Part shown: positions 6,791 to 60,293 of the stretch, piece by piece
Numbering within the stretch: position 1 is the stretch's first letter
Layout: each line of letters opens with the position of its first letter
Source: Candidatus Yanofskybacteria bacterium RIFCSPHIGHO2_01_FULL_44_22
GTDB lineage: Bacteria; Patescibacteriota; Minisyncoccia; 2-02-FULL-40-12; GWA2-44-9
Assembly (NCBI GenBank): GCA_001794205.1
Contig: MGJJ01000019.1
Coordinates: 1,353 to 65,352 of the forward strand
Direction of reading: 5' to 3'
Length of the DNA: 64,000 nucleotides
Translations under genes and position numbers: made by a program
The notes under the pieces: model-generated
The model's input: only the letters and a program-made list of their open reading frames with translations
What the model was told of the DNA's origin: nothing
Databases searched by the model: none

Positions 6791-6797
6791 TTACACT

Positions 6798-11424: not shown

Positions 11425-11495
11425 AGCGGAAGCGACTGTTCAAATATTCTGACATTCAAACAATGCTTGCGGAAACAATAAATGTTTAAAAATTC

Positions 11496-12029: not shown

Positions 12030-12033
12030 CGTA

Positions 12034-12088
12034 ACACAATGTCCTATTATTTCTCTTTCGTACGAAAGAGAAATAATAGGACATTGTG
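12034..12088. repeat. 55-nt perfect palindrome cacaatgtcctattatttctctttcgtacgaaagagaaataataggacattgtg
   Basis: Read directly. Related to the 11381-11424 palindrome. It lies between the PaaX-like gene and the downstream nuclease gene. Confidence 0.75.
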
Positions 12089-12196
12089 GACAAAATGGCC
12101 AACAGCAGCAGAATCTTTACTCTGCATAAGGCCACACACGGCATAAGGCCGCACACACTCCTTTTTTAATTTAATACACCTGTTATTATTACTTGC

Positions 12197-18353: not shown

Positions 18354-19973
18354 TTGCTTTTTATGATTACTCCGCCAGACAACGATATATTGCTTCTTGG
18401 AGAGACCAATTTCAGGAATGATAAAATTCGGTTTGGAATTAAAACCGACGACCGGAGACGGCACATGTATGTGGTTGGCTCAACCGGCATGGGAAAATCA
18501 GAATTTTTGAAGACCATGGCCATTCAGGACATTGAAGCCGGCCACGGTCTCGCTTTCATTGACCCGCACGGCGACCCGGTGGTTGATTTATTGGAGTTTA
18601 TTCCGAAAGAAAGAATCAAAGACGTAATTTATATCGACCCGGGCGATTTGGCCTTTCCGATTGCGTTTAATGTGATGGAAAGCGTTGATTTTGATTATCG
18701 TCACTTGATTGCCGCCGGTCTTTTGGGAGTTTTTAAAAAAATCTGGGTTGACGCCTGGTCGGCGAGAATGGAATACATTCTCAACAACACTATCTTGGCG
18801 CTTTTGGAATATCCCGGCTCCACTCTGCTTGGCATCAATAAAATGCTTGCCAGCAAGGAATATCGGAAAAAAGTTGTTGCCAATATAACCGACCCCATCG
18901 TTAAATCATTTTGGGTTGAAGAGTTCGCCAAATATGCCGACAAATTTGCCACTGAAGCGACAGCGGCCATTCAGAACAAAATCGGCCAGTTTATTTCCAA
19001 CAATCTTATCAGAAACATCATCGGCCAGCCGAAATCCACCCTGGATGTCAGGAAAATAATGGACGAGGGGAAAATTCTGCTGGTCAATATTTCGCGGGGC
19101 AGAATCGGAGAAGACGCCTCACGCCTGCTCGGTGCGCTTTTGGTCACCAAAATACAATTGGCGGCTATGTCGCGGGTAGATGTTCCGGAGCCGGAAAGAA
19201 AAGACTTCTTTCTTTATGTGGACGAGTTTCAGCACTTTGCGACTGAATCGTTCGCCAATATTTTATCGGAGGCGAGGAAATACCATCTAAGTTTAATTAT
19301 GGCTCATCAGTACATCAAACAAATGGAAGAACCAGTTTGCGACGCCGTATTCGGCAATGTCGGCACGATTATCTCTTTCAGGGTTGGCGCCGAAGACGCC
19401 GAGTTTCTTGAAAAATGGTTCGCGCCGGACTTTATGATGTCCGACATCGTCAATCTCGGCAAACAAAATATTTATCTTAAGCTGATGATAGACGGCGTTT
19501 CTTCGCGGGGTTTTTCGGCGGCAACTTTACAGAGGTTTGAAAAATCGGAGCGGACTTTTAAGGATGAAATTATAGAGTTCTCGAGAAAAACTTACGCCAC
19601 TCCCAAGAGCGAAGTGGAGAAAGATATAGCCGAATGGGCCGGAGCGGCCAGAGAAGAGAGCGGGGAAGAAACAACAACCAGACCGGCGTCGAGAGATGAA
19701 AGACGCGGCAAAGAATTTAGCGGAAGACCGCGGAGCGGAAACTTTCCTCCGCCTCGCCGTGAATCCGTTGAACCGGCTCGCCGCGATTTTCGTCCGCGTC
19801 AAAGCCAGCTTCCAAAAAGAGAAACACCAGCCCCCGTTTCCCTTAAAAGCGCTTTTGGCGGGGGAGCGGTGGATTTTAAGGGTAGGAAATTCGGCGGCGG
19901 TCAGTCGGTTCCCAAGAAAGAAGTTGACACCGCCGAACTCAAAAAGATTCTGAACGAGGCGTTGAAAAAATAA
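18354..19973 (+). CDS. FtsK/HerA-superfamily ATPase resembling type IV secretion coupling protein (VirD4/TraD/TrwB-like), without N-terminal TM segments; Arg/Pro-rich disordered C-terminal tail
   Basis: Walker A (GSTGMGKSE) and Walker B-like (FLYVDEFQHF) motifs. The C-terminal ~110 aa is low complexity (RPASRDERRGKEFSGRPRSGNFPPPRRE...). Confidence 0.6.
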   Translation: MLFMITPPDNDILLLGETNFRNDKIRFGIKTDDRRRHMYVVGSTGMGKSEFLKTMAIQDIEAGHGLAFIDPHGDPVVDLLEFIPKERIKDVIYIDPGDLAFPIAFNVMESVDFDYRHLIAAGLLGVFKKIWVDAWSARMEYILNNTILALLEYPGSTLLGINKMLASKEYRKKVVANITDPIVKSFWVEEFAKYADKFATEATAAIQNKIGQFISNNLIRNIIGQPKSTLDVRKIMDEGKILLVNISRGRIGEDASRLLGALLVTKIQLAAMSRVDVPEPERKDFFLYVDEFQHFATESFANILSEARKYHLSLIMAHQYIKQMEEPVCDAVFGNVGTIISFRVGAEDAEFLEKWFAPDFMMSDIVNLGKQNIYLKLMIDGVSSRGFSAATLQRFEKSERTFKDEIIEFSRKTYATPKSEVEKDIAEWAGAAREESGEETTTRPASRDERRGKEFSGRPRSGNFPPPRRESVEPARRDFRPRQSQLPKRETPAPVSLKSAFGGGAVDFKGRKFGGGQSVPKKEVDTAELKKILNEALKK

Positions 19974-27246: not shown

Positions 27247-27885
27247 ATGATTAGCTTTCTTGAGGGCAAAATTGAATACTTGGGGGACAAATTCGTCATT
27301 TTAAGCGCGGGGGGCATAGGATATAAGGTGAGTATAGTCCCCAATCTGCTGAATATTCTATCAAAAAGTCAAGCCGGGGTCAACCCCGAACGAAGTCGCG
27401 AGGGCACGCAGCGCGCCTCTACTTCGTACGGGGTCAATACCGTTAAAATGTTTATCCATTCCCAGCTAAATATGCGGGAAGGCACCTTTGATTTGTATGG
27501 GTTTGATAAAAAAGAAGATTTGGACCTGTTTAATACTCTAATTTCCGTTTCCGGCATCGGACCCAAAAACGCTCTTAACATCATGTCATCGGTGGAACCG
27601 AGGCATCTTAAGGCGGCGGTGGTCAATGATGATGCCGATTTTTTGAAAAAAGTTTCCGGCCTTGGCCCAAAAACCGCCCAAAGATTAATTTTGGAATTGA
27701 AAAATAAAGTTGATTATTTGGAAGATATTGACGGACTTGATTTGGGACAGGAGGGCCATGCCATGGAGGCTTTGCTTGCCCTTGGTTACAGCGCAAATCA
27801 GGCGAAAGATGTTCTCAAAGAAGCAAAAGGAGAGACGCTGGAGAATCGGGTGCGAGATGCGTTAAAAATTTTAGGGAAGAAATGA
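27247..27885 (+). CDS. ruvA: Holliday junction DNA helicase subunit RuvA (carrying an 18-aa in-frame mini-element insertion in domain I)
   Basis: MISFLEGKIEY start. HhH motifs (ISVSGIGPKNALNIMS, VSGLGPKTAQRLILELK). C-terminal RuvB-interaction helix (LALGYSANQAKDVLKE). The ATG at 27247 is preferred over the upstream ORF start. Confidence 0.85.
   Translation: MISFLEGKIEYLGDKFVILSAGGIGYKVSIVPNLLNILSKSQAGVNPERSREGTQRASTSYGVNTVKMFIHSQLNMREGTFDLYGFDKKEDLDLFNTLISVSGIGPKNALNIMSSVEPRHLKAAVVNDDADFLKKVSGLGPKTAQRLILELKNKVDYLEDIDGLDLGQEGHAMEALLALGYSANQAKDVLKEAKGETLENRVRDALKILGKK
27385..27432. mobile_element. Second copy of the 48-nt palindromic mini-element, in-frame in ruvA; flanked by direct repeat GGGGTCAA (27376-27383 / 27430-27437), total insertion 54 nt
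   Basis: cccgaacgaagtcgcgagggcacgcagcgcgcctctacttcgtacggg matches the secA copy at about 44 of 48 positions. It encodes PERSREGTQRASTSYG and duplicates codons G-V-N. Confidence 0.6.
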
Positions 27886-44389: not shown

Positions 44390-46147
44390 ATGAATCAAAA
44401 TCTTGCGAAAATATTGCGTGAGATATCGGTGCTTCTTGAAATAAAAGGAGTCGAATTTAAGCCTCAAGCTTATGAAAAAGTTGCCCATTCGATTGAAATG
44501 CTTGAAGAAGACGTCAAAGATATTTATCAAAAAGGCGGCCTCAAGGCTCTTGAAGAAATTTCTGGTGTCGGCCGGGGGATTGCCGAGAAAATTGAAGAAT
44601 ATATCAAGAACCGCCGCATTAAAGACCATGCATTGTTAAAAAAAGAAATCCCCGTTGACATAGACGAATTATCGACAGTTGAAGGCGTCGGCCCCAAAAT
44701 GATACTTAGGCTGTATGAGGAATTGAAAATAAAAACCCGCGACCAGCTGGAGAAAGCGGCCCGAGCCGGAAAATTACGCGGTCTTGAAGGTTTTGGCCAA
44801 AAAACGGAAGAAAACATTCTGCGAAGTATTGATTTTTTAAAAAAAGAACACGGCCGCTTTATTCTCGGTTTCGTAATGCCGGAGATGCGGGCGATTGTGG
44901 AAAAAATAAGAAAGGTGCCTGGAGTGGAAAGAGCTGAATTTGCAGGTTCAATCAGGCGGATGCAGGAAACCGTAGGCGACCTGGACATTTTGGTTATCTC
45001 TAAAAAACCTTCGTTGGCGATGGATTTTTTTGTTACCATGCCGGAAGTGGCGGCGATTTACGCCAAAGGCAATACTAAATCCTCGGTAAGACTGAAAATG
45101 GGCATGGATGCAGATTTGAGAGTTCTGCCGCCGGAATCTTTCGGCGCCGCTTTGCAGTATTTCACCGGCGATAAATATCACAATGTTCAGCTTCGCCAAA
45201 TTGCCATAAAACAAGGTTATAAGCTGAACGAGTACGGCTTATATAAAGGGAAAAAACTGGTGGCCGGCCGAACCGAAGAAGAAATATACGAAAAATTAGG
45301 GTTGGCCTGGATGCCGCCGGAATTGCGTACCAACGGGGGCGAACTTGTGGCTGCTCTTCGGCCAGTTCGACAAGCTTGTGGCGAGCAAGCTCAAGGTAAA
45401 CCGGATGGATTGCCTAAACTTGTTGAGTACGGCGACCTGATGGGCGATTTGCAGATACAGACCGATTGGACCGACGGAGAAAACTCCATAAGGGAAATGG
45501 CGGAAGCCGCCAAAAAACAGGGTCTGAAATACATTTGCATAACTGACCACACTAAAACGCTTGCTATGACCGGCGGAAGCGATGAAAAAAAATTGTTGCG
45601 CCAGATGGCCGCGATTGACGAAGTCAATCGCAAATTTAAAGGTTCTGGTTTTAAAGTTCTAAAGGGCGCGGAGGTTAATATAATGAAGGACGGGACTTTG
45701 GATATTAATGATGAGACATTGGCCAAGCTTGATGTCGTGGGCGCTTCGGTTCATTCCAATTTTAATATGCCCGAGAAAGACATGACGGCAAGAATAATCA
45801 GAGCGATGGAAAATCCCAATGTGGACATAATTTTTCATCCTACCGGAAGAGTGATAAAAAGACGCGAGGCCTATAAAGTTAATATGGATGAATTGCTAAA
45901 ATCAGCCAAACGCACTAAGACGGTTATGGAAATAGACGCCTTTCCCGACCGGCTGGATTTGAAAGATGAATATATAAGAAAAGCTGTTGAACTTGGCGTA
46001 AAATTAGCCATAGATTCCGACGCCCATTCCGTCGCTCATTTCTCATATCTTGAATTTGGCGTTGCTCAAGCGCGCCGCGGCTGGGCTGAAAAGTCAGATA
46101 TTATTAACACAAGGGACTGGCAAGAAATGCTTAAACAGTTAAAATAA
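44390..46147 (+). CDS. polX: DNA polymerase X family protein with C-terminal PHP phosphoesterase domain
   Basis: N-terminal HhH (NLAKILREISVLLEIKGVEFKPQAYEKVAHSIE). Pol-beta-like nucleotidyltransferase (GSIRRMQETVGDLDILV). PHP domain (ITDHTK...HSNF...DSDAH). Confidence 0.85.
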   Translation: MNQNLAKILREISVLLEIKGVEFKPQAYEKVAHSIEMLEEDVKDIYQKGGLKALEEISGVGRGIAEKIEEYIKNRRIKDHALLKKEIPVDIDELSTVEGVGPKMILRLYEELKIKTRDQLEKAARAGKLRGLEGFGQKTEENILRSIDFLKKEHGRFILGFVMPEMRAIVEKIRKVPGVERAEFAGSIRRMQETVGDLDILVISKKPSLAMDFFVTMPEVAAIYAKGNTKSSVRLKMGMDADLRVLPPESFGAALQYFTGDKYHNVQLRQIAIKQGYKLNEYGLYKGKKLVAGRTEEEIYEKLGLAWMPPELRTNGGELVAALRPVRQACGEQAQGKPDGLPKLVEYGDLMGDLQIQTDWTDGENSIREMAEAAKKQGLKYICITDHTKTLAMTGGSDEKKLLRQMAAIDEVNRKFKGSGFKVLKGAEVNIMKDGTLDINDETLAKLDVVGASVHSNFNMPEKDMTARIIRAMENPNVDIIFHPTGRVIKRREAYKVNMDELLKSAKRTKTVMEIDAFPDRLDLKDEYIRKAVELGVKLAIDSDAHSVAHFSYLEFGVAQARRGWAEKSDIINTRDWQEMLKQLK

Positions 46148-50163: not shown

Positions 50164-51459
50164 ATGCGTTTTTCCGGTCTTTTCACCAAAACACTGCGCG
50201 AAATTCCCGCCGAGGAAACGGCAAAAAACGCCCAACTTTTGTTGCGGGGAGGTTTTGTGTTTAAAAACTCCGCCGGCGTTTATTCTTTTCTGCCTTTAGG
50301 CTGGCGGGTGATGTCCAAGGTCATCAAAATTATCCGAGAAGAAATGAATGCCATCGGCGGACAAGAAATGTTTATGCCGGCTCTGGTGGAGAAAAAATAT
50401 TTGGAAGCGACCAATCGCTGGAATCTTGATGTCGGATTTGATGTAGTAACCAAAAAGAATCCGGATGCCGATTCGACGGGCTCACGGCAAGCCGGTTTTG
50501 CTCTCGGTTGGACGCATGAAGAAGTTTTAACGGCCATTGCTTCCAAATACGTCAGTTCTTACAAAGACCTGCCTTTTGCCGCTTATCAGCTTCAAACGAA
50601 ATTCAGGAACGAAGCGCGGGCCAAATCCGGCCTTTTGCGCGGTCGGGAGTTTATGATGAAAGATTTGTACAGTTTTCACGCCGATGAAAAAGACCTGTTT
50701 GATTACTACGAAAAGGTCAAAGAAGCTTATATGAAGATTTTTGAACGCTGCCATCTGCGGGCGATTTATACCGTAGCCGGCGGCGGAGCCTTTACCATAA
50801 GCAATACCCACGAGTTTCAAATTTTGTCGGATGTGGGCGAAGACACGATTTTAATCTGCTCCCAATGCGAGTATGCCGAAAATAGCGAGATTACAAAATT
50901 AAAAGAGAAAGACGAATGTCCAAAATGTGGCGGCGGCATGTTTGAAGCAAAGGCGATTGAGGCGGGAAATATTTTTCCCTTGGGAACCAAATATTCCGAA
51001 GCGATGGATTTGAAGTTTGTTGATGAAAAAGGAGAAAAGAAATATGTCGTAATGGGTTCTTATGGTATCGGCGTGAGCCGTTTGATGGCAGTGATAGCGG
51101 AAATCCACAATGACGAGAAGGGCATTATCTGGCCGGAAAATGTTGCTCCGTTCAACGCCCACTTGATAACATTATTTGGCAAAGATAATGACTTTCAAGA
51201 AGATGTTAAGAAGAAAGCCGAAAAACTTTATGAAGATTTAAATAAAAACGGCATAGAAGTTTTATTTGATGACCGGAAAGACAAAAGTCCGGGAGAAAAA
51301 TTAGCTGATGCAGATTTAATTGGCTGCCCGTACAGATTAATAGTCAGTCCAAATACCATAAGTGCGGCTTTATGCGAAGTGAAAAAACGCGCGAATAAAA
51401 AACCGGAGAAGCTCTCAGATTTTCAAAACGTCGAACAATTAATAAAATATATGAAGTAA
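50164..51459 (+). CDS. proS: Prolyl-tRNA synthetase, short form without editing insertion
   Basis: MRFSGLFTKTLREIPAEETAKNAQLLLRGGFV start. Class II motifs. C-terminal anticodon-binding domain. 431 aa. Confidence 0.9.
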   Translation: MRFSGLFTKTLREIPAEETAKNAQLLLRGGFVFKNSAGVYSFLPLGWRVMSKVIKIIREEMNAIGGQEMFMPALVEKKYLEATNRWNLDVGFDVVTKKNPDADSTGSRQAGFALGWTHEEVLTAIASKYVSSYKDLPFAAYQLQTKFRNEARAKSGLLRGREFMMKDLYSFHADEKDLFDYYEKVKEAYMKIFERCHLRAIYTVAGGGAFTISNTHEFQILSDVGEDTILICSQCEYAENSEITKLKEKDECPKCGGGMFEAKAIEAGNIFPLGTKYSEAMDLKFVDEKGEKKYVVMGSYGIGVSRLMAVIAEIHNDEKGIIWPENVAPFNAHLITLFGKDNDFQEDVKKKAEKLYEDLNKNGIEVLFDDRKDKSPGEKLADADLIGCPYRLIVSPNTISAALCEVKKRANKKPEKLSDFQNVEQLIKYMK

Positions 51460-51535: not shown

Positions 51536-52585
51536 ATGTTTAATAAATTTTTCGGTTTTTGGTCAAAAGACATAGGAATTGATTTGGGTACGGCAAACAC
51601 CCTTGTTTATGTTCGCGGCAAAGGAATAGTCATCAATGAGCCGTCCATAGTCGCCGTTAACCAAAAAACCGGCAAAATTTTAGCAATCGGAAAAGAAGCC
51701 AAAGCGATGGTCGGCCGCACCCCGGGTTATATCGCCATTTTCCGCCCTCTTGTTTCCGGCGTTGTTTCTGATTTCGAAGTGACCGAACAGATGCTCAAAT
51801 ATTTTATCGATAAAGTTCATCAGGACGGTTTTGCCCTTATTCCCCGGCCGCGGGTGGTGATAGGCGTGCCGTCGGGCGTGACGGAAGTGGAGAAAAGAGC
51901 GGTGGAAGACGCGGCTTACAATGCCGGCGCGCGGGAGGTATATCTTATAGAAGAGCCGATGGCGGCGGCAATCGGAGCTCGTTTGCCGGTGCATGAAGCG
52001 GTGGCCAACGTCATCGTGGATATCGGCGGGGGCACGACTGAAGTGGCGGTAATCTCAATGGGCGGGGTAATCGCTTCACGGTCTTTGCGGATTGCCGGCG
52101 ACAAACTTAACGAAGACATTCTGCGCTATATGCGGGAAGAAAAAAAATTATTAATCGGCGAAGCCACTGCCGAGCAGCTTAAATGTTCTCTTGGTTCGGC
52201 GTTTGCTTTGGACGAAGAACTTGAGGGCCGTGTTCGGGGGCGGGATTTGATTTCCGGTCTGCCAAAAGAAATGACGGTGTCTTCCGAAGAATTGCGGGAA
52301 GCGATGGAAAGGTCGGTCGGCGCCATAGTTTTAGCCGTTAAAAACACTATCGAAGAAACTCCGCCGGAACTTACGGCCGACCTGTTCAATAGACACATTT
52401 TTCTTGCCGGCGGGGGAGCGCTGTTGAGGGGACTGGATAAACATATCGCCGAAGAAACCAAATTATTCGTTAAAATTGTCGATGACCCCTTGGCGGCGGT
52501 GGCGCGAGGCTGCGGTTTTGTCCTTGAAAATGTCGGTCAATTAAAGTCGGTTCTTGTTTCAACCCAAAAAGACGAATTCATATGA
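51536..52585 (+). CDS. mreB: Rod shape-determining protein MreB
   Basis: DIGIDLGTANTLVYVRGKGIVINEPSIVAV phosphate-1 motif. Actin fold throughout. Confidence 0.95.
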   Translation: MFNKFFGFWSKDIGIDLGTANTLVYVRGKGIVINEPSIVAVNQKTGKILAIGKEAKAMVGRTPGYIAIFRPLVSGVVSDFEVTEQMLKYFIDKVHQDGFALIPRPRVVIGVPSGVTEVEKRAVEDAAYNAGAREVYLIEEPMAAAIGARLPVHEAVANVIVDIGGGTTEVAVISMGGVIASRSLRIAGDKLNEDILRYMREEKKLLIGEATAEQLKCSLGSAFALDEELEGRVRGRDLISGLPKEMTVSSEELREAMERSVGAIVLAVKNTIEETPPELTADLFNRHIFLAGGGALLRGLDKHIAEETKLFVKIVDDPLAAVARGCGFVLENVGQLKSVLVSTQKDEFI

Positions 52586-53400
52586 GTCGTTTTTCCGCCG
52601 GAAACCAAACTTTTTTTTATTTGTTTGCAACTGCAACGGCAGTTATTTTTTTAATCAAATTTATTTTCGGCGGATATGATTTTTTGTATCCTGATTTCGC
52701 AGAGGGATATTTTTCGGCGGCTTGGAGCAAGCTGGAAATTTTTAAAAAAATTTCAACCGAAGCTCTGAAATGGCGGGAACTGGCAAATGAAAACGAAGAA
52801 TTGCGGAAACAAAATAAAGAATTGACGCAAAAAACGACGTTAGCCGGCGCGCTGGAAGAGGAAAATAAATTTTTAAGGCGGACGGTCGGGATAACCGCTA
52901 AAATTCCGGGCCGGTTTGTTTTGGGCGGCATATATAATTTAAACTTAACCCCGTCGGATTATAATGTTTTGCTGAATCGGGGTTCAAAAAACGGGGTTTC
53001 GGAAGGCGATATTGTTATTACGGCTGAAGGAATTTTAGTGGGACAAGTAAAACAAGTTTTTGGCGCTTTCTCAAAACTTTTGTTTATCACCGACCCAGCT
53101 TTTAAAATAAGCGGAAAGATTTCCCGTTCGACCAACTCACGGCAAGCCGGCTCTGAAACTAAGGGGCTGGTTAAGGGCCGGCTCAATGAGGAGCTTTATT
53201 TTGACCTTATAACCAGAAAGGATACCGTAAAAGAAGGCGATTTGGTGGTTTCTTCCGGCGATGACACGTTCCCGCCGGCGTTAATTATCGGAACGGTTTC
53301 TTTCGTTGCGGCAAATGAAACCGGAGTTTTTCAAACCGTTAAAATCAGGCCCGCGGTGAATGGAGAGTCATTAGCCAAAATTTTGATAATGATGAGATGA
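52582..53400 (+). CDS. mreC: Rod shape-determining protein MreC
   Basis: N-terminal TM, coiled-coil (ELANENEELRKQNKELTQK), beta-rich periplasmic domain. Overlaps the mreB stop. Confidence 0.8.
   Translation: MSRFSAGNQTFFYLFATATAVIFLIKFIFGGYDFLYPDFAEGYFSAAWSKLEIFKKISTEALKWRELANENEELRKQNKELTQKTTLAGALEEENKFLRRTVGITAKIPGRFVLGGIYNLNLTPSDYNVLLNRGSKNGVSEGDIVITAEGILVGQVKQVFGAFSKLLFITDPAFKISGKISRSTNSRQAGSETKGLVKGRLNEELYFDLITRKDTVKEGDLVVSSGDDTFPPALIIGTVSFVAANETGVFQTVKIRPAVNGESLAKILIMMR
53125..53150 (+). repeat. Single copy of the 24-nt coding repeat unit (cgttcgaccaactcacggcaagccgg; STNSRQAG) also found in tandem at 60107-60189
   Basis: Read directly. It lies within mreC. Confidence 0.8.
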
Positions 53401-53936
53401 AAAATATAAAAATTTTTATTTTGTTTTTTGCCGTCTTTATTCTTGATACGGTCGTAATGCCTGCGCTTTTCAATTTTAAAGAAAATATTGCCGTGTTTCT
53501 GTTGATTTCGGCCTGGCTTGCGGCTAACGCCGGTAGCACTGGAATTTTGGCCGGAGTTTTTATGAGTTTTGGGGCGGAAATCCTGTCCGGAGCCAATCCG
53601 GGCGTTTTTGTCTTATCTTTTTTAGCGGCGGCCCTTATTTTTTTTATTGCGGTCAAGTTCATAATTCTCGGACAAGATGGAATTTTTTCGCATTCCGCCA
53701 GGGTTTATTTTCAAAAATTAATCGTTACTATCGGGATATTTATTGTATTTGCCCTGTTGTCAATTTTAATAAACAACCTGCTTTATGCCGCCAATGGTTA
53801 TTTTTTATTGATATCCGCAATGGCGGTTAACGCCAAAATGATTGTTTACATTATCGTTTGGAGCGCGATTTTTACGGTCTTATTAAACAGAAAGAAGCCA
53901 AATGCCGAATCTCGCTTTCTTAATTCTTTATTCTAA
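53397..53936 (+). CDS. mreD: MreD-like small polytopic membrane protein
   Basis: Position immediately after mreC. 5 predicted TM. No strong sequence signature. Confidence 0.5.
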   Translation: MKNIKIFILFFAVFILDTVVMPALFNFKENIAVFLLISAWLAANAGSTGILAGVFMSFGAEILSGANPGVFVLSFLAAALIFFIAVKFIILGQDGIFSHSARVYFQKLIVTIGIFIVFALLSILINNLLYAANGYFLLISAMAVNAKMIVYIIVWSAIFTVLLNRKKPNAESRFLNSLF

Positions 53937-53950
53937 ATTGTATTCCGCTC

Positions 53951-55882
53951 ATGTTTTTAAAACGTTCAACTTATTCACTCGAAATAAATCAGGACGATTG
54001 GGCCTCGCCGGAAGAAACCCTGCTTGATGCCGGCAGTGATTATGCCGACCTGGAAAAACCGATTCCCGATTTTTATTTTAAGTTCATCGCCGTTGCCACT
54101 CTGATTCTTTTCTTCGCGGTTGCGGCTTTGTCTTTTAATTTAAGCGTTTTCAAACATGATAATTTTGAAAAAATTGCCGCTCAAAATAAATCGGTAAGTT
54201 TTGCCGTATCTCCTCCGCGCGGCGCAATTTTTGACCGGCTTGGTCGGTCTCTTACGGAAAATGTTCCAAGTTTTGGTCTCTTGGCGGTTTCCCGCGAATT
54301 AAAAAATTCTGTTCCGGAAGAGGCCAATCTTGAAAAATTGGCCCAAATATTAAAATTTTCCGCGGAAAATTTTGAAAAGACGATTTCTGACGGCAGTAAA
54401 ACCAACTCTGTCTTTTTTGTCGCCGCCGACCTTAATAAAGAACAAATTTTAGCCGTTGAAAACGGAATTTTTAAAGGATTTCATATTATTCCCGACTTAA
54501 AACGCCGATATGTTGACGGCAAGCAATTTGCCCACATTATTGGTTATGTCGGAAAGGTTAATGGAAATGACCTGCGCCGGGACGCTTACTATGAATCGGT
54601 TGATTTTATGGGCCGGACCGGGATTGAAGCGGAATATGAAAAAATTCTGCGGGGCGAACATGGCCGGCTTCTTTTTGACGGCGGCGTGGAGAACGGAAAA
54701 ATAGTAAATCGGGAAACCTCTGCCGGCAGCAATTTGGTGTTGAATATAGATTACGCTTTGCAGAAAAAACTTTATAACGAGACCTATAATATTTTAGCGG
54801 CTAACGGCTTGGCTAAAGCGGCAGCCGTAATTCAAAACCCGCAAAACGGAGCGGTGCTGGCCCTGGTCAGTTTTCCGGATTACGATAATAATGATTTTGC
54901 GGCCGGCCTTTCTGACCGGGAAGCGGACAGTATTTTAAAAAACAAGAATCAGCCTCTTTTTAACAGGGTTATCGGCGGATTGTACAATCCCGGCTCGACA
55001 ATAAAACCCTTAATGGGTTTAATGGCGCTTGAAGAAAAGATTTTCGCGCCGCAAGACAATATCAGAGATTGCGTCAGCCTTACCGTTCCCAATCCTTTTG
55101 ACGCCGATTCTCCTTACGTCTTTAAAAATTGGCGCTCGGAATCGGGTCTTTTTAACTTGCGCAAAGCGATTGCCAATTCCTGCAACATTTATTTTTTCAT
55201 TGCCGGCGGAGGCCATAAAAGCATAAAAGGTTTGGGCGTGGAAAGAATCACAAAATATTTAACAGCCAGTCTGGCGGCCCAACAACTCGGCATTGATTTG
55301 CCGGGCGAGGAAGCCGGTTTTATTCCCGGTCCCGATTGGAAATTGGCCGAAAAACGCGAAAGCTGGTATTTGGGAGACACCTACAATATTTCAATAGGTC
55401 AGGGCGACCTGTTGATTTCACCTCTCTGGCTAAACAGTTATATTTCGGCCATTGGCAACGGGGGCACTTTTTATAAACCGCAAACGGCCCAACGGATTCT
55501 TGATGCCAACAAAAATACAATTCAGATTTTCCAACCGGAGAAAATAGGTCAGCTTCAGTTTAAACAGGACAATATCCTGGAAATTAAAAGCGATATGGAA
55601 GAAACGGTTCTTTCCGGAACGGCCAAAGCGCTTCGTGATTTGCCGGTGCGGGCCGGCGCCAAAACCGGCACGGCCGAAGTGGTGAAAAATAAAAAAATCA
55701 ATTCTTTGTTTTCCGCGTTTGCTCCGTGGGAAAATCCGGAAATTGCCATTACGGTCCTCGTTGAAGATGCCGCCTCAAACCAGGGTTTAGCGGTTCAGAT
55801 AGCCCACAATGTTTTGAAATGGTATTTCGGGCAATTCTTACCGCAACCGGTTGAATCCTCACCGGTCTCGGAATCCCATTAA
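53951..55882 (+). CDS. mrdA: Penicillin-binding protein 2 (peptidoglycan D,D-transpeptidase, elongasome)
   Basis: N-terminal TM, dimerisation domain, transpeptidase motifs STIKP (SxxK), SCN (SxN), KTGTA (KTG). Confidence 0.9.
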   Translation: MFLKRSTYSLEINQDDWASPEETLLDAGSDYADLEKPIPDFYFKFIAVATLILFFAVAALSFNLSVFKHDNFEKIAAQNKSVSFAVSPPRGAIFDRLGRSLTENVPSFGLLAVSRELKNSVPEEANLEKLAQILKFSAENFEKTISDGSKTNSVFFVAADLNKEQILAVENGIFKGFHIIPDLKRRYVDGKQFAHIIGYVGKVNGNDLRRDAYYESVDFMGRTGIEAEYEKILRGEHGRLLFDGGVENGKIVNRETSAGSNLVLNIDYALQKKLYNETYNILAANGLAKAAAVIQNPQNGAVLALVSFPDYDNNDFAAGLSDREADSILKNKNQPLFNRVIGGLYNPGSTIKPLMGLMALEEKIFAPQDNIRDCVSLTVPNPFDADSPYVFKNWRSESGLFNLRKAIANSCNIYFFIAGGGHKSIKGLGVERITKYLTASLAAQQLGIDLPGEEAGFIPGPDWKLAEKRESWYLGDTYNISIGQGDLLISPLWLNSYISAIGNGGTFYKPQTAQRILDANKNTIQIFQPEKIGQLQFKQDNILEIKSDMEETVLSGTAKALRDLPVRAGAKTGTAEVVKNKKINSLFSAFAPWENPEIAITVLVEDAASNQGLAVQIAHNVLKWYFGQFLPQPVESSPVSESH

Positions 55883-55977
55883 ATTTGCGCTTCCATTCCG
55901 TTTGTGTTAAATTAACTTCTTATTATCTGCCGGAACTGTGCTTGGGCTGCCGGGCAGATGCCAAATAAAACAAAACC

Positions 55978-56436
55978 ATGGATAATCAATATTTTAGTCG
56001 CGAAGGGCTTGAAAAATTAAAAAACGAGCTTGAGGAAAGATTGACTGTTATCAGGCCGGAAATTGCCAGCCGCATTAAAGAGGCCAAAGAACTCGGCGAT
56101 TTGTCGGAAAGCGCCGAATATGAATCGGCCAAAGAGGCCCAGGCGGCAAACGAGGGGAGAATCGAAGAAATTAAAGAGATTCTGGAAAACGCCGTAATTG
56201 TCACCGGCTCAAGCGGCAGCGGCATTGCCGACGTAGGTTCATGCGTAAAAACCGAATCCAAAAACGGTTCGCAGGAATTCGTAATTGTCGGCGCGTCGGA
56301 ATCAAATCCCGGACAGGGATTTATCTCAAACGAATCTCCTTTGGGCAGAGCTTTTTTGGGTCACAAAAAAGGGGATAGCGTTGAAGTTAAAACTCCCAAG
56401 GGCGTTGTGGAATATAAAATCACGGAAATACGATAA
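55978..56436 (+). CDS. greA: Transcription elongation factor GreA
   Basis: Coiled-coil N-domain (LSESAEYESAKEAQAANEGRIEEIKE) and FKBP-like C-domain. Confidence 0.9.
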   Translation: MDNQYFSREGLEKLKNELEERLTVIRPEIASRIKEAKELGDLSESAEYESAKEAQAANEGRIEEIKEILENAVIVTGSSGSGIADVGSCVKTESKNGSQEFVIVGASESNPGQGFISNESPLGRAFLGHKKGDSVEVKTPKGVVEYKITEIR

Positions 56437-56500
56437 CGCCCCCATGTCTTTTTAGAATGAAGGTTTTGTATCGCCGTTTTTTTTGTTATGATTGACTTGT

Positions 56501-56633
56501 CCCCTCACTCACTTAATAGATATTTCTGTGAGCTGTCGGGGATTATAAAGCTAATTACGCAACAAGTTGCAGCTTATCAAACTATAAAAAGTGGGGTAAG
56601 AAATAACAAAGCAACTATTAAGTGAGTGTGGGG
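56501..56633 (+). promoter_or_regulatory. lysS 5' leader with long-range helix: cccctcactcacttaatag (56501-56519) complementary to ctattaagtgagtgtgggg (56615-56633), which covers the lysS SD and start region
   Basis: Read directly (19 nt, 1 mismatch). A possible translational sequestration element. No T-box consensus found. Confidence 0.4.
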
Positions 56634-58130
56634 ATGGCCCTGGAAGAGATACGTAAAACTAAAATTGAAAAAGTTGAAGCCGCAATAAATGCCGGTCTGG
56701 ACCCTTATCCGGCTGTTTGCAACCGAACGCATAAAATATCCGAAGCTCTGGCTGATTTTGAACGATTAAGTCAAGACAAGAAAATTATTACTCTGGCCGG
56801 CAGAGTAATGGCCATGCGTGAACACGGCGGTTCCGTCTTTTTTGACATTGACGACGGTTCTGAAACCGACGCCGCAAACCGCTTGTCTTCGGATGGGCAG
56901 ATTCAGGTCCATGTGAAAGAAGACGTTATCGGCAAAGAAAAATTTGGATTATTCAAAACCTTAGTCGATATTGGAGATTTCCTCGAAATCCGTGGTTTTT
57001 TGTTTAAAACCAAAAAAGAAGAAAGAACTCTGGAAACGGAGGATTTTCGCCTGTTATCCAAAGCCCTTCTACCGCTTCCGGAAAAATGGCACGGCCTTCA
57101 GGATGTGGAAGAAAGATACCGAAAAAGATATCTGGACATGCTTTTCAACAAAGAAATTAAGCATAAATTTATGCTTCGCTTTAAAATCATCGGCTTGTTG
57201 CGTGATTTTTTCAAAGACAACGGATTTTTGGAAGTCGAAACACCCATTCTCCAGCCGCTTGCCGGCGGCGCCAGCGCCAGGCCCTTCAAAACCCACATGA
57301 ATGACCTGAATGTCGACTTATATTTGAGGATAGCTCCCGAATTGTATTTAAAGCGTCTTTTGGTGGGAGGCATGGAAAAAGTTTTTGAAATAGCCAAGAA
57401 TTTTCGCAATGAGGGCATGGATCGCGAACATAATCCGGAATTCAATATGCTTGAAGCCTACGCCGCCTATAAAGATTACCGATGGATGATGGAGCTGACG
57501 GAAAAGATGATGGAATTTTTAACCCGAGAAATATTCGGTAAAACGGAAGTCGAGTACGGAGGCGCGAAAATTGATTTTAAGAAACCTTATAAACGTCTGC
57601 AATTCAACGATATCATCAAGAAATATGCCGGTCTGGATTACGATACGGCCGATGGAGGCGATTTTAAAAAAAGGGCCGGGGAACTGGGCCTTAAAATAGA
57701 AAAAACGGCGACTAAGGAAAATATCGCCGACGAGATTTACAAGAAGCTGGCCCGGCCGCAAATCATCAACCCCGTCTTTGTGGTTGACCACCCTCTGGAG
57801 CTTTCGCCGTTAGCCAAGAAACTGCCGGAGAACGCCGGCCATGTCGCCAGATTTCAGCTTTTGGCCGCCGGTTTTGAATTGACAAACGCGTTTTCCGAAC
57901 TCAACGACCCCCAAGACCAGCTTGAGCGGTTCCGGCTCCAGGAGCAGAAAAGAAAAAAGGGCGACGAAGAAGCACAACGCCTGGACAAGGATTTTGTCGA
58001 AGCGTTGGAATACGGCATGCCTCCGGCGGCCGGCATCGGCATCGGCATTGACCGGCTGGTCGCGCTTTTGACCGATTCTCACTCACTTAGGGAAATTCTG
58101 CTGTTTCCGATTATGAAACAAAAAGAATAA
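56634..58130 (+). CDS. lysS: Lysyl-tRNA synthetase, class II
   Basis: OB anticodon-binding domain, class II motifs (FRNEGMDREHNPEFNMLE, GMPPAAGIGIGIDRLV). An alternative GTG start lies at 56622. Confidence 0.9.
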   Translation: MALEEIRKTKIEKVEAAINAGLDPYPAVCNRTHKISEALADFERLSQDKKIITLAGRVMAMREHGGSVFFDIDDGSETDAANRLSSDGQIQVHVKEDVIGKEKFGLFKTLVDIGDFLEIRGFLFKTKKEERTLETEDFRLLSKALLPLPEKWHGLQDVEERYRKRYLDMLFNKEIKHKFMLRFKIIGLLRDFFKDNGFLEVETPILQPLAGGASARPFKTHMNDLNVDLYLRIAPELYLKRLLVGGMEKVFEIAKNFRNEGMDREHNPEFNMLEAYAAYKDYRWMMELTEKMMEFLTREIFGKTEVEYGGAKIDFKKPYKRLQFNDIIKKYAGLDYDTADGGDFKKRAGELGLKIEKTATKENIADEIYKKLARPQIINPVFVVDHPLELSPLAKKLPENAGHVARFQLLAAGFELTNAFSELNDPQDQLERFRLQEQKRKKGDEEAQRLDKDFVEALEYGMPPAAGIGIGIDRLVALLTDSHSLREILLFPIMKQKE

Positions 58131-58131
58131 T

Positions 58132-59382
58132 ATGCTCGACATTAAATTTATCCGTCAAAATCCGGAGGCCTTAAAAGAAGCGGTGCGCAAAAAACACGTT
58201 GATTTTGACGTGGAGCATTTGCTGGCCGTCGACTCAAGAAGGCGGGAATTGCTTGAATCGTCGGAATCTTTGAAAGCGGAGCAGAATAAGAGGTCAAAAG
58301 GCCCGCAATCGCCCAAAGACCTTGAAGAGCTTAAAGGCATCAAGGAAAAAATAAAAATTTTGGAAACCGAGCTGACGGTAGTGGAAAATGAATTTCAGAG
58401 CTTAATGCTTCTTGCGCCGAACATACCGGACGAAACCGTGCCGGAAGGCAAGTCCGACGCCGACAATAAAGAAATAAGAAACTGGGGCAAAATTCCGAAG
58501 TTTGATTTTAAGCCGAAAGACCACATTGAACTGATGAAAGAACTTGACCTTCTGGACATTGAACGCGGGGCCAAAGTTTCCGGTTTCCGTGGCTACTTCC
58601 TGAAAAACGAGGCCGTCCTCTTGTCTTTTGCTTTATGGCAATTTGCCGCGGAGCGGCTTTTAAAAAAGGGTTTCCAGCCGTTGTTTGCGCCCGCCATTGC
58701 GAAAGAATTTAATTTTGTGGGAACCGGCTGGCTGCCGCAAAGCAAAGACGAAGTTTATAAAGTCGGCAACGATGAATATTTAACGGGCACTGCGGAAGTT
58801 TCGGTAATGGGCTATCGCGCCGATGAAATTTTAAACGAGAAGGCCTTGCCCCAAAAGTATGTCGCCTTTTCACCATGTTTCAGGTCCGAGGCCGGTTCGT
58901 ACGGAAAAGACACAAAAGGCATTTTGCGAGTCCATGAATTTTACAAACTGGAACAAGTTGTTTTGTGTCGAAACAGCCGCGAGGAATCGGTAAAATGGCA
59001 CGAAGAGCTGACCAAAAACGCGGAAACGCTTCTCCAAGAACTCAAACTGCCGTACCGAGTGGTGATAAACTGCTCCGGAGATTTAGGACTGGGCCAGGTT
59101 AAAAAATACGATATTGAAACCTGGATGCCCTCACAGGAAAAATACCGCGAGACTCACTCCTCGTCGTATTTTTATGATTTTCAATCGCGCCGCTTAAATA
59201 TCAAGTATCGCGACGATGAAGGAAAAACTCATTTTGTCCATTCTTTGAACAATACCGCCTTGGCGACTCCGCGTCTTCTGGCGAATTTAGTTGAAAATTA
59301 TCAGACCAAAAAGGGGACTGTAATTATACCCAAGGTTTTAAGGAAATACATGGGCGGGGTTAAAGAAATTAAAAAGAAGTAG
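58132..59382 (+). CDS. serS: Seryl-tRNA synthetase
   Basis: MLDIKFIRQNPEALKEAVRKK coiled-coil N-arm, class II core (FRSEAGSYGKDTKGILRVHEF). Confidence 0.9.
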   Translation: MLDIKFIRQNPEALKEAVRKKHVDFDVEHLLAVDSRRRELLESSESLKAEQNKRSKGPQSPKDLEELKGIKEKIKILETELTVVENEFQSLMLLAPNIPDETVPEGKSDADNKEIRNWGKIPKFDFKPKDHIELMKELDLLDIERGAKVSGFRGYFLKNEAVLLSFALWQFAAERLLKKGFQPLFAPAIAKEFNFVGTGWLPQSKDEVYKVGNDEYLTGTAEVSVMGYRADEILNEKALPQKYVAFSPCFRSEAGSYGKDTKGILRVHEFYKLEQVVLCRNSREESVKWHEELTKNAETLLQELKLPYRVVINCSGDLGLGQVKKYDIETWMPSQEKYRETHSSSYFYDFQSRRLNIKYRDDEGKTHFVHSLNNTALATPRLLANLVENYQTKKGTVIIPKVLRKYMGGVKEIKKK

Positions 59383-59399
59383 TTGAAGGTTGATTTCTT

Positions 59400-60293
59400 A
59401 TGCGTCCGGCTGACATCAAAACCATACGTGAAAGGAGTGATTTTGGGCGCCGCGCAAGGCGTCCGTTTATTTTTTGGCTCGCGGCAGTCGGAGCTTTGGC
59501 GCTGGCCGCCTCCGCGGTTCATATTCTTTTCTTTGCCGATATCCTGCGGATACAAACAGTTTCAATATCGGAAAACGGCCGGATATCAGAAAGCTCCGAC
59601 GGTAAAGCCATTTTGGCTGCGATAAATTCGGTTCTGGAAGAAAAAAAAATCGGCTTTTTAAAAATTGCGGAAAACATCCTGTTTTTTGACAGGTCGGCAA
59701 CGGAGAAACAATTATCGGAAGACTTGCTCTTTATAAAAAACATAAAAATAAACAAGCTATTTCCGCATGGGTTGGCCGTTGAGTTTTCTAAAAAAATTCC
59801 AATTGGCGTCTGGTGTTTTAAAGATGGCGGCTGCCGGTATTTTGACGCGGCCGGCTCAATGTGGGGAGAAGCAGAAAAATCTTCAGGATTTCTCCTGTTG
59901 TCGGTAGATGATTTGCGAAACGGCGGCAATACCGCAAAAAGCGCCGCGGTCGATGCCGCTTTTTTTATGCCGCTTCTTAAAATTAATGAATATTTGCCGG
60001 CGGTGAACCTTAAAATTAAAAATGCGGAGATTCCGGAAAATTCACTTGGCGAATTTAAGGTTTTTACCGACAAAAATTATTTTCTGTTTTTTGATGCCGG
60101 TTCGACCAACTCACGGCAAGCCGGTTCGACCAACTCACGGCAAGCCGGTTCGACCAACTCACGGCAAGCCGGTTCCGACATCGCCGGCCAGCTGGAAAGT
60201 TTAAAGATGTTGCTGGAAGAGCGGGGAAAAGACACCGGTTTCAACCCTCAATATATAGACTTAAGGATTGGGGGAAGAATTTATGTAAAATGA
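59400..60293 (+). CDS. Membrane-anchored hypothetical protein, possibly FtsQ/DivIB-like (POTRA), carrying an octapeptide tandem repeat
   Basis: Basic N-terminus, single TM (PFIFWLAAVGALALAASAV), beta-rich ectodomain. The FtsQ assignment is weak. Confidence 0.4.
   Translation: MRPADIKTIRERSDFGRRARRPFIFWLAAVGALALAASAVHILFFADILRIQTVSISENGRISESSDGKAILAAINSVLEEKKIGFLKIAENILFFDRSATEKQLSEDLLFIKNIKINKLFPHGLAVEFSKKIPIGVWCFKDGGCRYFDAAGSMWGEAEKSSGFLLLSVDDLRNGGNTAKSAAVDAAFFMPLLKINEYLPAVNLKIKNAEIPENSLGEFKVFTDKNYFLFFDAGSTNSRQAGSTNSRQAGSTNSRQAGSDIAGQLESLKMLLEERGKDTGFNPQYIDLRIGGRIYVK
60107..60189 (+). repeat. 24-nt tandem repeat (ccggttcgaccaactcacggcaag) x3.4, encoding (GSTNSRQA)n in-frame
   Basis: Read directly. 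Three perfect copies plus a partial one. Confidence 0.9.

Follow-up and report, generated by a model that had tools for sequence, protein, structure and literature searches.

The repeat unit and its copies

How does the same short piece of DNA come to lie, in frame, both in mreC and in an FtsQ-like division gene (ftsQ below) some 7 kb away? The question arises from the original prediction, made on a 64-kb stretch of Yanofskybacteria DNA (the window), that a near-identical nucleotide unit had recently spread between the two genes by recombination or replication slippage. The unit itself is readily confirmed at both places. The exact 22-mer CGACCAACTCACGGCAAGCCGG occurs once in mreC (53129-53150) and three times in tandem in the FtsQ-like ORF (starts at 60103, 60127 and 60151), and 100 dinucleotide-preserving shuffles of the window gave no match. 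All of these copies are in frame, as claimed, and translate as STNSRQAG. The single copy in mreC stood, and the 3.4 copies ascribed to the FtsQ-like gene became 3.3 (TRF, period 24, 100% matches). The restriction to two genes did not hold: proS carries a copy that had been missed, which differs from the 22-mer at three positions and keeps the reading frame of the others. The five clear units in these three genes have nhmmer E-values of 7e-10 to 3e-9 (Table 1).

Two further candidates are marginal. One, in polX (E = 0.25, match at 45361-45392), bears a weak similarity to the repeat family; compared with T. thermophilus PolX (3au2), it adds 14 residues between the polymerase domain and the PHP domain, and its CCA/TGG flanks are complementary. 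The other, a possible antisense copy, gave E = 0.06 with a model built without that sequence.

Table 1. Repeat units, candidate relatives and host genes in the window
Feature	Coordinates	Strand	Sequence, product or assignment
Tandem array of 3.3 x 24 nt in FtsQ-like gene	60096..60175	+	GCCGG-TTCGACCAACTCA-CGGC-AA; TRF
Product of FtsQ-like array	residues 235-258		(STNSRQAG)x3
Single unit in mreC	53122..53153	+	core TTCGACCAACTCACGGCAAGCCGG at 53127-53150; STNSRQAG = residues 183-190
Single G-variant unit in proS	50467..50498	+	TTCGACGGGCTCACGGCAAGCCGG at 50472-50495; STGSRQAG
Possible diverged relative in polX	45361..45404	+	GCCAG-TTCGACAAGCTTG-TGGC...; other frame, read as PVRQACGEQAQGKP
Possible decayed 1.4-unit copy, antisense	19746..19797	-	C-terminal tail of TraG/VirD4-like ATPase gene; read as PPRRESVEPARRDF
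FtsQ-like (POTRA) division gene, host of array	59400..60293	+	orthologues with PF08478
mreC, host of single unit	52582..53400	+	PF04085 MreC; gene order mreB-mreC-mreD-PBP2
proS (prolyl-tRNA synthetase), host of G variant	50164..51459	+	PF00587, PF03129
TraG/VirD4-like ATPase gene, host of antisense candidate	18354-19973	+	Pfam assignments

Could the unit be a DNA uptake sequence? Such sequences occur about once per 1-2 kb and are species-specific, whereas the window holds five clear copies at three loci in its 64 kb, and the motif is also present in other phyla (see below). When public contigs assignable to the species were scanned with the repeat pattern, matches fell only in proS, mreC and ftsQ, so the element is not abundant in the Yanofskybacteria genome.

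Orthologues and empty sites

Comparison with relatives identifies the units as insertions. MreC orthologues (at most 50% identical) read FKINAKV-AGSDT without the insert, and FtsQ-like orthologues (at most 56% identical) are without the 24 inserted residues. In ProRS, exactly eight residues are missing at the insert site from four orthologues that are 77-79% identical, and one orthologue (P0121/L021) has the eight-residue insert. At the codon level, empty and filled sites differ by clean 24-nt insertions at GCCG(G): the empty mreC sites of two relatives (L021 and L042) read GTT GCC GGT TCC GAT, and the empty proS site GAA GCC G/GC TTT (slash at the insertion point) corresponds to the filled GAA GCC G[ATTCGACGGGCTCACGGCAAGCCG]GG TTC. 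No zero-unit allele was found within the species when alleles were compared across assemblies, so the case for insertion comes from relatives with no more than 80% DNA identity. The proS copy, common to a relative with 80% identity in DNA, is older.

Direct repeats (GCCG, GCCGGTTC), 4-8 nt long, lie on either side of the units, yet they belong to the periodic unit itself. A point against insertion at GCCG(G) is that the left flank of the mreC unit is today TCCCG, not GCCGG. The 11-mer GCCGGTTCCGA occurs in two relatives at the empty mreC site and again in the flank to the right of the ftsQ array.

Variation among near-identical strains

Among strains whose flanking DNA is 99.7-99.97% identical, mreC and ftsQ each have one, two or three units, the kind of copy-number polymorphism that had been named as a point to check. 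Two unit variants, STNS (N) and STSS (S), make up these arrays. FtsQ has [N], [S,N], [N,N,N], [S,S,N] or [N,S,N] across assemblies, in proteins of 281, 289 or 297 aa, and MreC has [N], [N,N], [S,N], [N,N,N] and others, in proteins of 272, 280 or 288 aa. The unit of 24 nt, or eight codons, is a multiple of three, so its number can change without a break in the frame, and the frame is kept in all mreC and ftsQ alleles. The presence of both variants at both loci argues for exchange between the two. In one contig (L025), a 52-nt deletion breaks mreC at the repeat.

The repeats and their differences in number might in principle be artefacts of assembly or sequencing, considering that short-read assemblers can collapse or expand short tandem repeats and that mreC is broken in L025. 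We regard this as extremely unlikely. More than 15 independent assemblies, from ENA, JGI and NCBI, show the same loci, the differences are always of whole units with distinct unit-type patterns, and the longest array, at 80 nt, is below typical read length.

Location of the inserts in the host proteins

The model of the FtsQ-like protein matches the FtsQ structures 5z2w, 6h9o and 2vh1 (Foldseek, E about 1e-11). AlphaFold gives a pLDDT below 50 to residues 236-258 of this protein, between a strand (228-232) and a helix (261-275), and to residues 184-189 of MreC, in a loop between strands 175-181 and 193-200. Both inserts are modelled as low-confidence, exposed surface segments, in agreement with the disorder that had been predicted for them. 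The proposed setting in periplasmic linkers needs amendment on two counts: the MreC insert is placed by the model in a beta-hairpin loop within the beta-barrel domain and not in a linker, and the segments are better called extracytoplasmic.

Do the inserts serve a purpose there? The unit could be a selected functional module, either a flexible, adjustable spacer or a contingency locus, through which the extracytoplasmic loops in MreC and FtsQ would be tuned, be it for divisome and elongasome contacts or for evasion of phage or host factors. Consistent with this idea, MreC and FtsQ are both exposed proteins of envelope morphogenesis, near-clonal strains are hypervariable in unit number, and every sense insertion is in the one hydrophilic frame. 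It is difficult, however, to see why such a module would also occur in the cytoplasmic proteins ProRS, DnaJ and RsmH and antisense in other genes, or why identity would be at the nucleotide level, synonymous sites included. The frame bias is explained by purifying selection against the F/L-containing frame together with the phase of the GCC-GGx target codons, and we find a selected role highly improbable.

A family of mini-hairpins in several phyla

The unit extends well beyond this species. Other CPR bacteria have the 24-mer in frame in DnaJ and RsmH, and it is found in an ORF of a viral contig and in intergenic repeats of Pseudomarimonas (a gammaproteobacterium) and of a Vicinamibacteria MAG (an acidobacterium); it also lies antisense within other genes. 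At uniform base composition, chance alone would give about 0.3 matches to 21 fixed bases in 2 x 596 Gb.

The family layout is stem, TTCGACNNGCTCA, stem, in which the 13-nt loop, TTCGAC-NN-GCTCA, is conserved. This loop is matched in full by the proS unit and the S variant; at its position 9 the N variant carries A in place of G. Complementary flanks are GCCG(G)/CGGC in the window and CCC/GGG, GGTGGC/GCCACC, TGG/CCA, CCT/AGG and others elsewhere. In an alignment dominated by one genome and by pattern-selected rows, the closing pair of the stem is GC in 19 sequences, CG in 15 and UA in one, and the stem covariation score is 0.384 against 0.111 in shuffles (none of 500 as high; slid controls also lower). 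Among loop instances in viral contigs, 220 of 254 have perfectly complementary 3-nt flanks, including stem types that were not selected for.

Related non-coding tandem arrays elsewhere have periods of 21-23 nt (23 nt in L115, 21 nt in L105), inverted doublets of mini-hairpin units occur in L086, and the family is common in environmental and phage contigs. A related inverted doublet matches intergenic DNA of Polaromonas, Methylobacter and Comamonas replicons and gave no match against GenBank phages; two consensus units gave no significant match in a plasmid BLAST search. With its 13-nt loop, covarying complementary flanks and tandem array of 24-nt period, the window unit is one branch of this mini-hairpin family.

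A single unit folds no better than shuffled sequence (z = -0.5), so the hairpin of an isolated unit is weak. The array and the reverse strand likewise fold no better than shuffles, and a strong palindrome of the REP or RPE kind was rejected on these grounds. A permissive Rfam scan (E up to 1) of five repeat-rich loci returned only a tRNA and chance microRNA matches and left the hairpin uncovered. A literature search with the loop DNA strings and peptide translations gave nothing relevant, and broader searches led only to papers on REP, RPE and MITE.

Two other origins were considered and set aside. A tRNA T-arm, brought to mind by the string GGTTCGA, was rejected by inspection, since a T-stem would require a pairing that the 3' strand does not form. 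The other is LigA: the exact reverse complement of the unit encodes the zinc-finger motif C-PACRE[PL]VE-R in several LigA genes from CPR bacteria. By eye, this motif aligns without insertion to the E. coli LigA zinc-finger sequence and therefore looks native; ligA does not lie in the 64-kb window.

The breadth of the family bears directly on the claim of recent spread. Nucleotide identity and copy-number polymorphism are as that claim would have them, but a locally born minisatellite is at odds with a hairpin family found across phyla: slippage accounts for copy number, not for origin. Absence of the unit elsewhere, together with native equivalents in the orthologues at both sites, had been named as the outcome that would count against spread; the unit occurs elsewhere, and the orthologues have no equivalent sequence.

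A purely local coding minisatellite would have arisen by duplication in one gene and passed to the other by gene conversion, with no relation to the wider family. In its favor, no occurrence of the exact N variant (CCAA) was seen outside the mreC and ftsQ genes of this species, and copy number varies as in ordinary VNTRs. Considering that the 21 specified bases recur in unrelated CPR genes and in intergenic repeats of other phyla, that the older proS copy is shared with a relative, and that alleles with one unit have target repeats on both sides and do not duplicate native sequence, we think a local birth very unlikely.

Comparison with known repeats and mobile elements

The GTAG- and CGTC-tagged REPs are short GC-rich hairpin repeats, mostly intergenic, that occur as singles, dimers and clusters in several phyla, and a subset of them is inserted, with the frame kept, in housekeeping genes, among them those for tRNA synthetases, DNA ligase and repair (Di Nocera et al. 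2013, PMC3733652). Their stems are long (at least 8-9 bp) and conserved, their loops are short, and a GTAG or CGTC tag is left unpaired (PMC3733652). The window family resembles them in being a short GC-rich hairpin of several phyla with some copies in frame in housekeeping genes. One difference is that its conserved part is the 13-nt loop, while the stems are variable and 3-7 bp long; a second is that window units form head-to-tail arrays with copy-number polymorphism. The 24-nt unit has a stem of 3-5 bp and a loop of 13-14 nt where a REP has a conserved stem of at least 8 bp and a short loop, no GTAG or CGTC tag lies beside any copy examined, and no RAYT (Y1 HUH transposase) gene is found among the window ORFs.

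The Rickettsia palindromic elements (RPE), reportedly described by Ogata et al. in 2000, are selfish repeats inserted in frame in essential genes of a reduced genome; the peptide they encode is at the protein surface, and the host protein stays functional. The window unit is similarly inserted in frame, at the protein surface, in conserved genes of a reduced genome whose orthologues lack it. RPE, unlike this 24-nt unit from Yanofskybacteria, are palindromes of 100-150 bp that are specific to Rickettsia and are not tandemly variable.

Bacterial coding minisatellites (VNTRs) and contingency loci consist of in-frame tandem units whose length alleles arise by slipped-strand mispairing among near-identical strains. 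The arrays share with them head-to-tail units of identical length, a multiple of three, in frame and polymorphic in number between conserved flanks. Classical VNTRs originate locally and lie in surface or virulence genes, whereas the window unit is an imported interspersed element, common to unrelated genes and taxa, in core genes of cell shape and division.

REPIN/RAYT systems and IS200/IS605 elements depend on hairpins, and the latter recognise a target or cleavage site through base pairing with their own DNA. At the level of sequence, the left flank of the window unit is likewise complementary to the 3' stem. In contrast to both systems, no transposase was found, and the unit is several-fold smaller than their substrates. 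Nor is it a MITE, an element with terminal inverted repeats and a target-site duplication: it has no terminal inverted repeats, its sole symmetry being the short internal stem, and its flanking direct repeats are part of the periodic unit.

How the unit may have arrived and multiplied

The best reading of these results is that of a REP/RPE-like hairpin repeat, selfish or neutral, that is tolerated in protein loops, varies in number by slippage and is moved by short-homology recombination or an unknown enzyme. Each 24-nt unit would be a copy of a short interspersed hairpin repeat, laid out as a 5' stem (GCCG), a 13-nt loop (TTCGAC-NNN-CTCA), a 3' stem (CGGC), an AA spacer and the 5' stem again (GCCGG). 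Insertion would take place at GCCG(G) sites, with direct repeats of 4-8 nt on either side, and in a gene-dense CPR genome copies would persist only when in frame in tolerant surface loops such as those of ProRS, MreC and the FtsQ-like protein. Once established, the unit would behave as a coding minisatellite, its number altered between one and three by slipped-strand mispairing or unequal recombination. Units would also be transferred or converted between mreC and ftsQ, presumably by short-homology recombination or template switching at the shared GCCGGTTC(CGA) junction. The octapeptide STxSRQAG would be a passenger without a function. Of this account, the results show the insertions, the empty sites, the variation in unit number and type, the position in loops and the place in a hairpin family whose stems covary, whereas slippage, the route of transfer and neutrality are inferred. 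Taken as a whole, this explanation (an interspersed hairpin repeat in tolerant loops, slippage with short-homology transfer, and a passenger octapeptide) seems to us probable.

If units can be carried by short homology, would there be any need for an enzyme? The 13-nt loop is conserved across phyla and would be hard to keep by passive recombination alone, which hints at a sequence-specific factor. Perhaps, then, the unit is an actively mobilised micro-element, whose loop is recognised by a trans-acting enzyme (such as an HUH/RAYT- or IS200/IS605-like single-strand transposase) that inserts it 3' of sequence complementary to the 3' stem. Since the unit ends in its own target, GCCGG, re-insertion beside an existing copy would build tandem arrays. 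Such an element would fit with a conserved loop and covarying stems, with copies in phage contigs, and with a left flank that pairs with the 3' stem in three stem types: GCCG/CGGC, CCT/AGG (in the pilin gene of L018) and CCA/TGG (in polX). It would also explain new S-type units beside existing N units, which simple slippage cannot yield. We nonetheless judge it unlikely, given that no transposase or HUH gene lies in the 64-kb window or beside the examined arrays (one of them phage-borne), that a 24-nt unit with a stem of 3-5 bp is far below the size of known transposase substrates, and that microhomology-mediated template switching predicts the same flank pattern.

A more general form of the idea, which we hold to be rather improbable, makes the TTCGAC-NN-GCTCA loop the recognition element of an undiscovered mobilisation system that operates across phyla, through an enzyme or a self-templating single-strand mechanism, and pastes units of 21-24 nt 3' of the complement of the 3' stem. 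If true, this would be a target-by-pairing micro-transposon that writes octapeptides into essential proteins, to our knowledge about ten times smaller than any known mobile element.

Implications

An interspersed hairpin repeat carried in tolerant loops ties the inserts of the window to a family widely found in environmental bacteria and phages. Here the loop is conserved and the stems vary, which reverses the classical REP design and suggests a sequence-specific factor. The length polymorphism of MreC and FtsQ in near-clonal strains provides both a strain marker and a natural experiment on the tolerance of elongasome and divisome loops. Inserts of this kind lengthen the proteins of CPR bacteria, and unrelated proteins share their translated sequences. 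Active short repeats are present even in CPR genomes, the most reduced among bacteria, and here they occupy essential genes, since intergenic space is almost absent.

Copies of the unit in the window

Four exact copies of the 22-mer CGACCAACTCACGGCAAGCCGG lie in the window, against a chance expectation of 0 (100 dinucleotide-preserving shuffles of the window), and the copies in mreC and the FtsQ-like gene keep the reading frame throughout, with the translation STNSRQAG. The exact in-frame nucleotide repeat that the original prediction placed in these two genes is thus confirmed. The tandem array is likewise present, at 100% identity, with 3.3 copies by Tandem Repeats Finder rather than the 3.4 first counted, and a third locus, in proS, had been overlooked. 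The finding is real, and its first interpretation as a mini-satellite spread by recombination or slippage is supported. The unit is laid out in the window as GCCG-(G)-TTCGACCAACTCA-CGGC-AA, followed by GCCGG. The product of the array-bearing ORF has no Pfam match itself; the name "FtsQ-like" is justified by its orthologs, which contain the FtsQ-type POTRA domain PF08478, and by its AlphaFold model, which resembles solved FtsQ structures (Foldseek E ~1e-11).

Repeat copies and other features, in window coordinates
Feature	Position	Strand	Location	Remarks
22-mer, single copy	53129		mreC (52582-53400)	exact match
22-mer, three copies	60103, 60127, 60151		ORF 59400-60293	exact match
Tandem array of 24-nt unit	60096-60175		FtsQ-like gene	3.3 copies
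proS copy	50467-50498		proS	3 mismatches; frame as in mreC and FtsQ-like gene; STGSRQAG
Possible decayed relative	45361-45404		polX (44390-46147)	E=0.25
Possible decayed ~1.4-copy unit	19746-19797	minus		E=0.06
48-nt palindrome	9462-9509, 27385-27432		SecA and RuvA genes	two copies
AT-rich tandem repeats	29948-29978, 39838-39898, 61229-61270, 61424-61465		inside ORFs	periods not multiples of three
Nuclease-related genes	10555-13639			three, clustered

Precise insertion into conserved genes

The units had been taken for insertions, and indeed no equivalent native sequence is present in the MreC or FtsQ-like orthologs compared. All FtsQ-like orthologs (at most 56% identity) are without the 24 residues, and all MreC orthologs (at most 50% identity) read FKINAKV-AGSDT where the window has FKISGKISR-STNSRQ-AGSET. 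In ProRS, exactly 8 residues are missing from four orthologs at 77-79% identity; one ortholog, protein P0121 from a Yanofskybacteria MAG (locus L021), has them.

Comparison at the codon level reveals clean 24-nt insertions. The empty proS site is GAA GCC G/GC TTT and the filled site GAA GCC G(ATTCGACGGGCTCACGGCAAGCCG)GG TTC; two relatives have an empty mreC site, GTT GCC GGT TCC GAT, and the right flank of the FtsQ-like array is GCC GGT TCC GAC. These last two therefore have in common the 11-mer GCCGGTTCCGA, which is similar to the unit-unit junction (GCCGGTTCGAC). Insertion is precise, 24 nt long and at GCCG(G), with flanking direct repeats of 4-8 nt. At L021, where the mreB DNA is ~80% identical to the window, the proS insert is present and the mreC site is empty, which dates the proS event earlier and restricts the mreC event to the window's species.

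The sites were presumed to lie in linkers, and both do have low pLDDT in AlphaFold models. The insert of the FtsQ-like protein (residues 236-258), between a strand (228-232) and a helix (261-275), is the only internal stretch with pLDDT <50, and MreC falls below 50 at residues 184-189. The MreC site, however, is a loop joining two strands (175-181 and 193-200). The proS site lies in a region that varies in length among ProRS orthologs.

Population variation

The locus was collected from >15 independent assemblies by exact-protein look-ups and pattern scans, with flanking DNA 99.7-99.97% identical to the window. Two unit types, N (STNSRQAG; …GACCAACTC…) and S (STSSRQAG; …GACAAGCTC…), both segregate at both loci. 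The FtsQ-like protein is 281, 289 or 297 aa long, with the arrays N (six times), S,N (three), N,N,N (three), S,S,N (two) and N,S,N (one). MreC is 272, 280 or 288 aa long, with N (four), N,N (two), S,N (three), N,N,N (one), N,TTSSRQAG (one) and STSSGQAR,S (two). Copy-number polymorphism, which the original prediction had suggested checking, is found among the assemblies compared, with one, two or three units at either locus. Both unit number and unit type are polymorphic, and the allele lengths and arrays make the two loci hypervariable coding minisatellites.

The 24-nt period allows an array to change copy number inside a gene, and such changes would occur by slipped-strand mispairing or unequal exchange, which are established behavior of tandem repeats. 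Slippage alone, however, cannot give an S unit adjoining an N unit. Three neighboring bases separate N from S, so the pair is unlikely to have arisen separately at each locus, which implies at least one transfer between mreC and the FtsQ-like locus, or from a third copy.

One contig (L025, Ga0209211_10010723) carries a 52-nt deletion in the mreC region corresponding to window 53111-53163 that takes out the unit. It falls between the imperfect direct repeats AAAATAAG and AAACTAAG, and the shifted frame leaves ORFs of 192 aa and 51 aa. The contig may hold a genuine null or minor allele; otherwise a mixture of strains was misassembled.

Occurrence in other genomes

Other genomes carry the unit too. 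A scan for TTCGACNNNCTCACGGCAAGCCGG across 596 Gb, with each species represented by a single genome, gave 12 loci, where ~0.3 chance matches are expected for 21 fixed bases (our own calculation, uniform base composition), and a metagenome scan gave 23 additional loci; the unit, proposed to have spread, is thus not absent elsewhere. It is in frame, in the sense direction, in the DnaJ G/F region of a Nomurabacteria-like clade, where it reads STGSRQAG; a different Patescibacteria MAG has it in RsmH, and a viral contig in a radical-SAM-like ORF. Sense insertions into real proteins are all in the hydrophilic STxSRQAG frame. This bias is probably due to the phase of the target (GCC-GGx) together with selection that disfavors the FDxLTASR frame. 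The unit is intergenic in a cultured gammaproteobacterium, Pseudomarimonas arenosa, in six copies of a ~100-nt repeat whose 20-25 nt modules come and go from copy to copy, and in a Vicinamibacteria MAG it occurs in dense intergenic repeat clusters.

In several CPR (loci L009, L018, L020, L032 and L034) the LigA zinc-finger motif C-PACRE[PL]VE-R is encoded by a perfect reverse complement of the unit over all 24 nt, CCG/CGG stem included; the window has no ligA. The motif looks native, since by eye it aligns to the zinc finger of E. coli LigA and has no insertion there. It may be a source of the unit, a sink (by gene conversion) or a coincidence.

Another antisense family member lies at 6870-6905 of L018, in a Saccharibacteria pilin-like gene (6324-6980, minus strand). 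It reads CCT-TTCGACGAACTCA-AGG-CAAGCC-CCT, with a different, compensating stem, and inserts LALSSSKG directly ahead of the GFTLIE prepilin motif.

A hairpin family with a conserved loop

Judged by sequence comparison, the units evidently belong to a cross-phylum family of predicted hairpin repeats. The Vicinamibacteria locus has 23 copies of TTCGACNNGCTCA, in both orientations, with complementary arms that vary (GGTGGC/GCCACC, GGTCCC/GGGACC, GC/GC). When 39 distinct instances, drawn from every source, are aligned without gaps, the three loop-adjacent pairs covary, the closing pair being GC in 19, CG in 15 and UA in 1. Covariation scored 0.384 versus 0.111 in shuffles, none of 500 shuffles scored as high, and all slid controls fell below the real alignment. 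Considering that a single genome supplies many of the rows and that others were picked by pattern, this covariation is supportive, not decisive. Viral contigs, with at least 120 loci for CCCTTCGACNNGCTCAGGG and 26 for CCGTTCGACNNGCTCACGG, give independent support. Among the viral loci in the matches listed, the 3-nt flanks are perfectly complementary in 220 of 254 loop instances, and for stem types outside the selection in ~46 of ~80 (TGG/CCA, TGC/GCA, GGC/GCC, TCC/GGA and CCA/TGG), with ~1.6% expected by chance. The isolated unit has no significant fold.

Related units also form non-coding tandem arrays with a period of 21-23 nt (L115, L105). They pair up as inverted doublets as well, one example being intergenic DNA of a Mu-like phage; a doublet query matches intergenic DNA of Polaromonas, Methylobacter and Comamonas replicons. 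Between tail genes of the Mu-like phage contig L086 (5450-5700) there are three tandem 70-nt units, each an inverted mini-hairpin doublet (CCGTTCGCCCTGAGCTAGTCGAAGGG + TGGTTCGACAAGCTCACCACGAACGG), so the wider family also colonizes phage intergenic DNA. A scan of five repeat-rich loci against Rfam gave no family that covers the hairpin, and its motif strings are in no paper found in the searchable part of the literature, so a description may exist; the family is apparently uncatalogued.

How might the unit be dispersed? Short-homology recombination or template switching would be favored for both dispersal and exchange between loci, given that GCCGG(TTC) brackets the copies and that the two target sites have 11 nt in common. 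Conservation of the loop across phyla argues for some sequence-specific factor, which leaves enzyme-driven insertion with target pairing as a rival. There are, however, no transposase genes in the window or beside a phage array, and insertion by an enzyme seems improbable compared with the short-homology route.

Possible decayed relatives and other repeats

Two marginal candidates for decayed relatives were scored with a model built without either stretch. The polX stretch, GCCAG-TTCGACAAGCTTG-TGGC...AAGCTCAAGGTAAACC with stem CCA/TGG, weakly resembles the mini-hairpin family; positions 45362-45403 encode 14 residues (PVRQACGEQAQGKP) that T. thermophilus PolX 3au2 does not have, inserted where the polymerase domain gives way to the PHP domain. 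The minus-strand candidate, GCCGG-TTCAACGGATTCA-CGGCGA, is antisense in a plus-strand gene (18354-19973) for a TraG/VirD4/HerA-like ATPase; its translation there, PPRRESVEPARRDF, belongs to the protein's low-complexity C-terminal tail.

A second in-frame insert family is a GC-rich palindrome (CCCGAACGAAG...CTTCGTACGGG; copies 92% identical, DNA fold z = -2.7) that encodes PERSREGTQRAS[AT]SYG in the wing/scaffold domain of SecA and the N-terminal domain of RuvA; the Pfam domain match of each protein is longer in residues than its profile. Copy-number change in the AT-rich intragenic repeats would shift the frame. CAATTAC x4.4 lies in a Mur ligase gene (translation QLPITNYQLPN), AATTTTC x4.4 and AATTTCCC x3.6 in ORF 39644-41035, and related 14-nt repeats in a PMT glycosyltransferase gene on the minus strand. 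The clustered nuclease-related genes encode a PD-(D/E)XK nuclease, a PaaX_M/Cas2-like domain protein and an RNase_H_2 protein with a weak Cas4 match; no CRISPR array is evident in the tandem-repeat output.

Relation to known elements

The closest described phenomena are intragenic REPs, Rickettsia palindromic elements (RPEs) and ordinary coding VNTRs. The unit differs from RPEs in size. It also differs from MITEs, having no terminal inverted repeats, and from GTAG/CGTC REPs, since it lacks a tag and combines a stem that is short and variable with a loop that is long and conserved. The array has all the features of a coding VNTR. Di Nocera et al. 2013 (PMC3733652), who also cite RPEs, describe REPs located within genes for tRNA synthetases, ligase and repair. 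In effect, the element would be a REP/RPE-like in-frame passenger that is minisatellite-like as well. Small in-frame repeats are already known in principle; the useful leads are the 8-residue cassette, variable across the population, that MreC and FtsQ carry in a CPR bacterium, and an apparently uncatalogued conserved-loop family.
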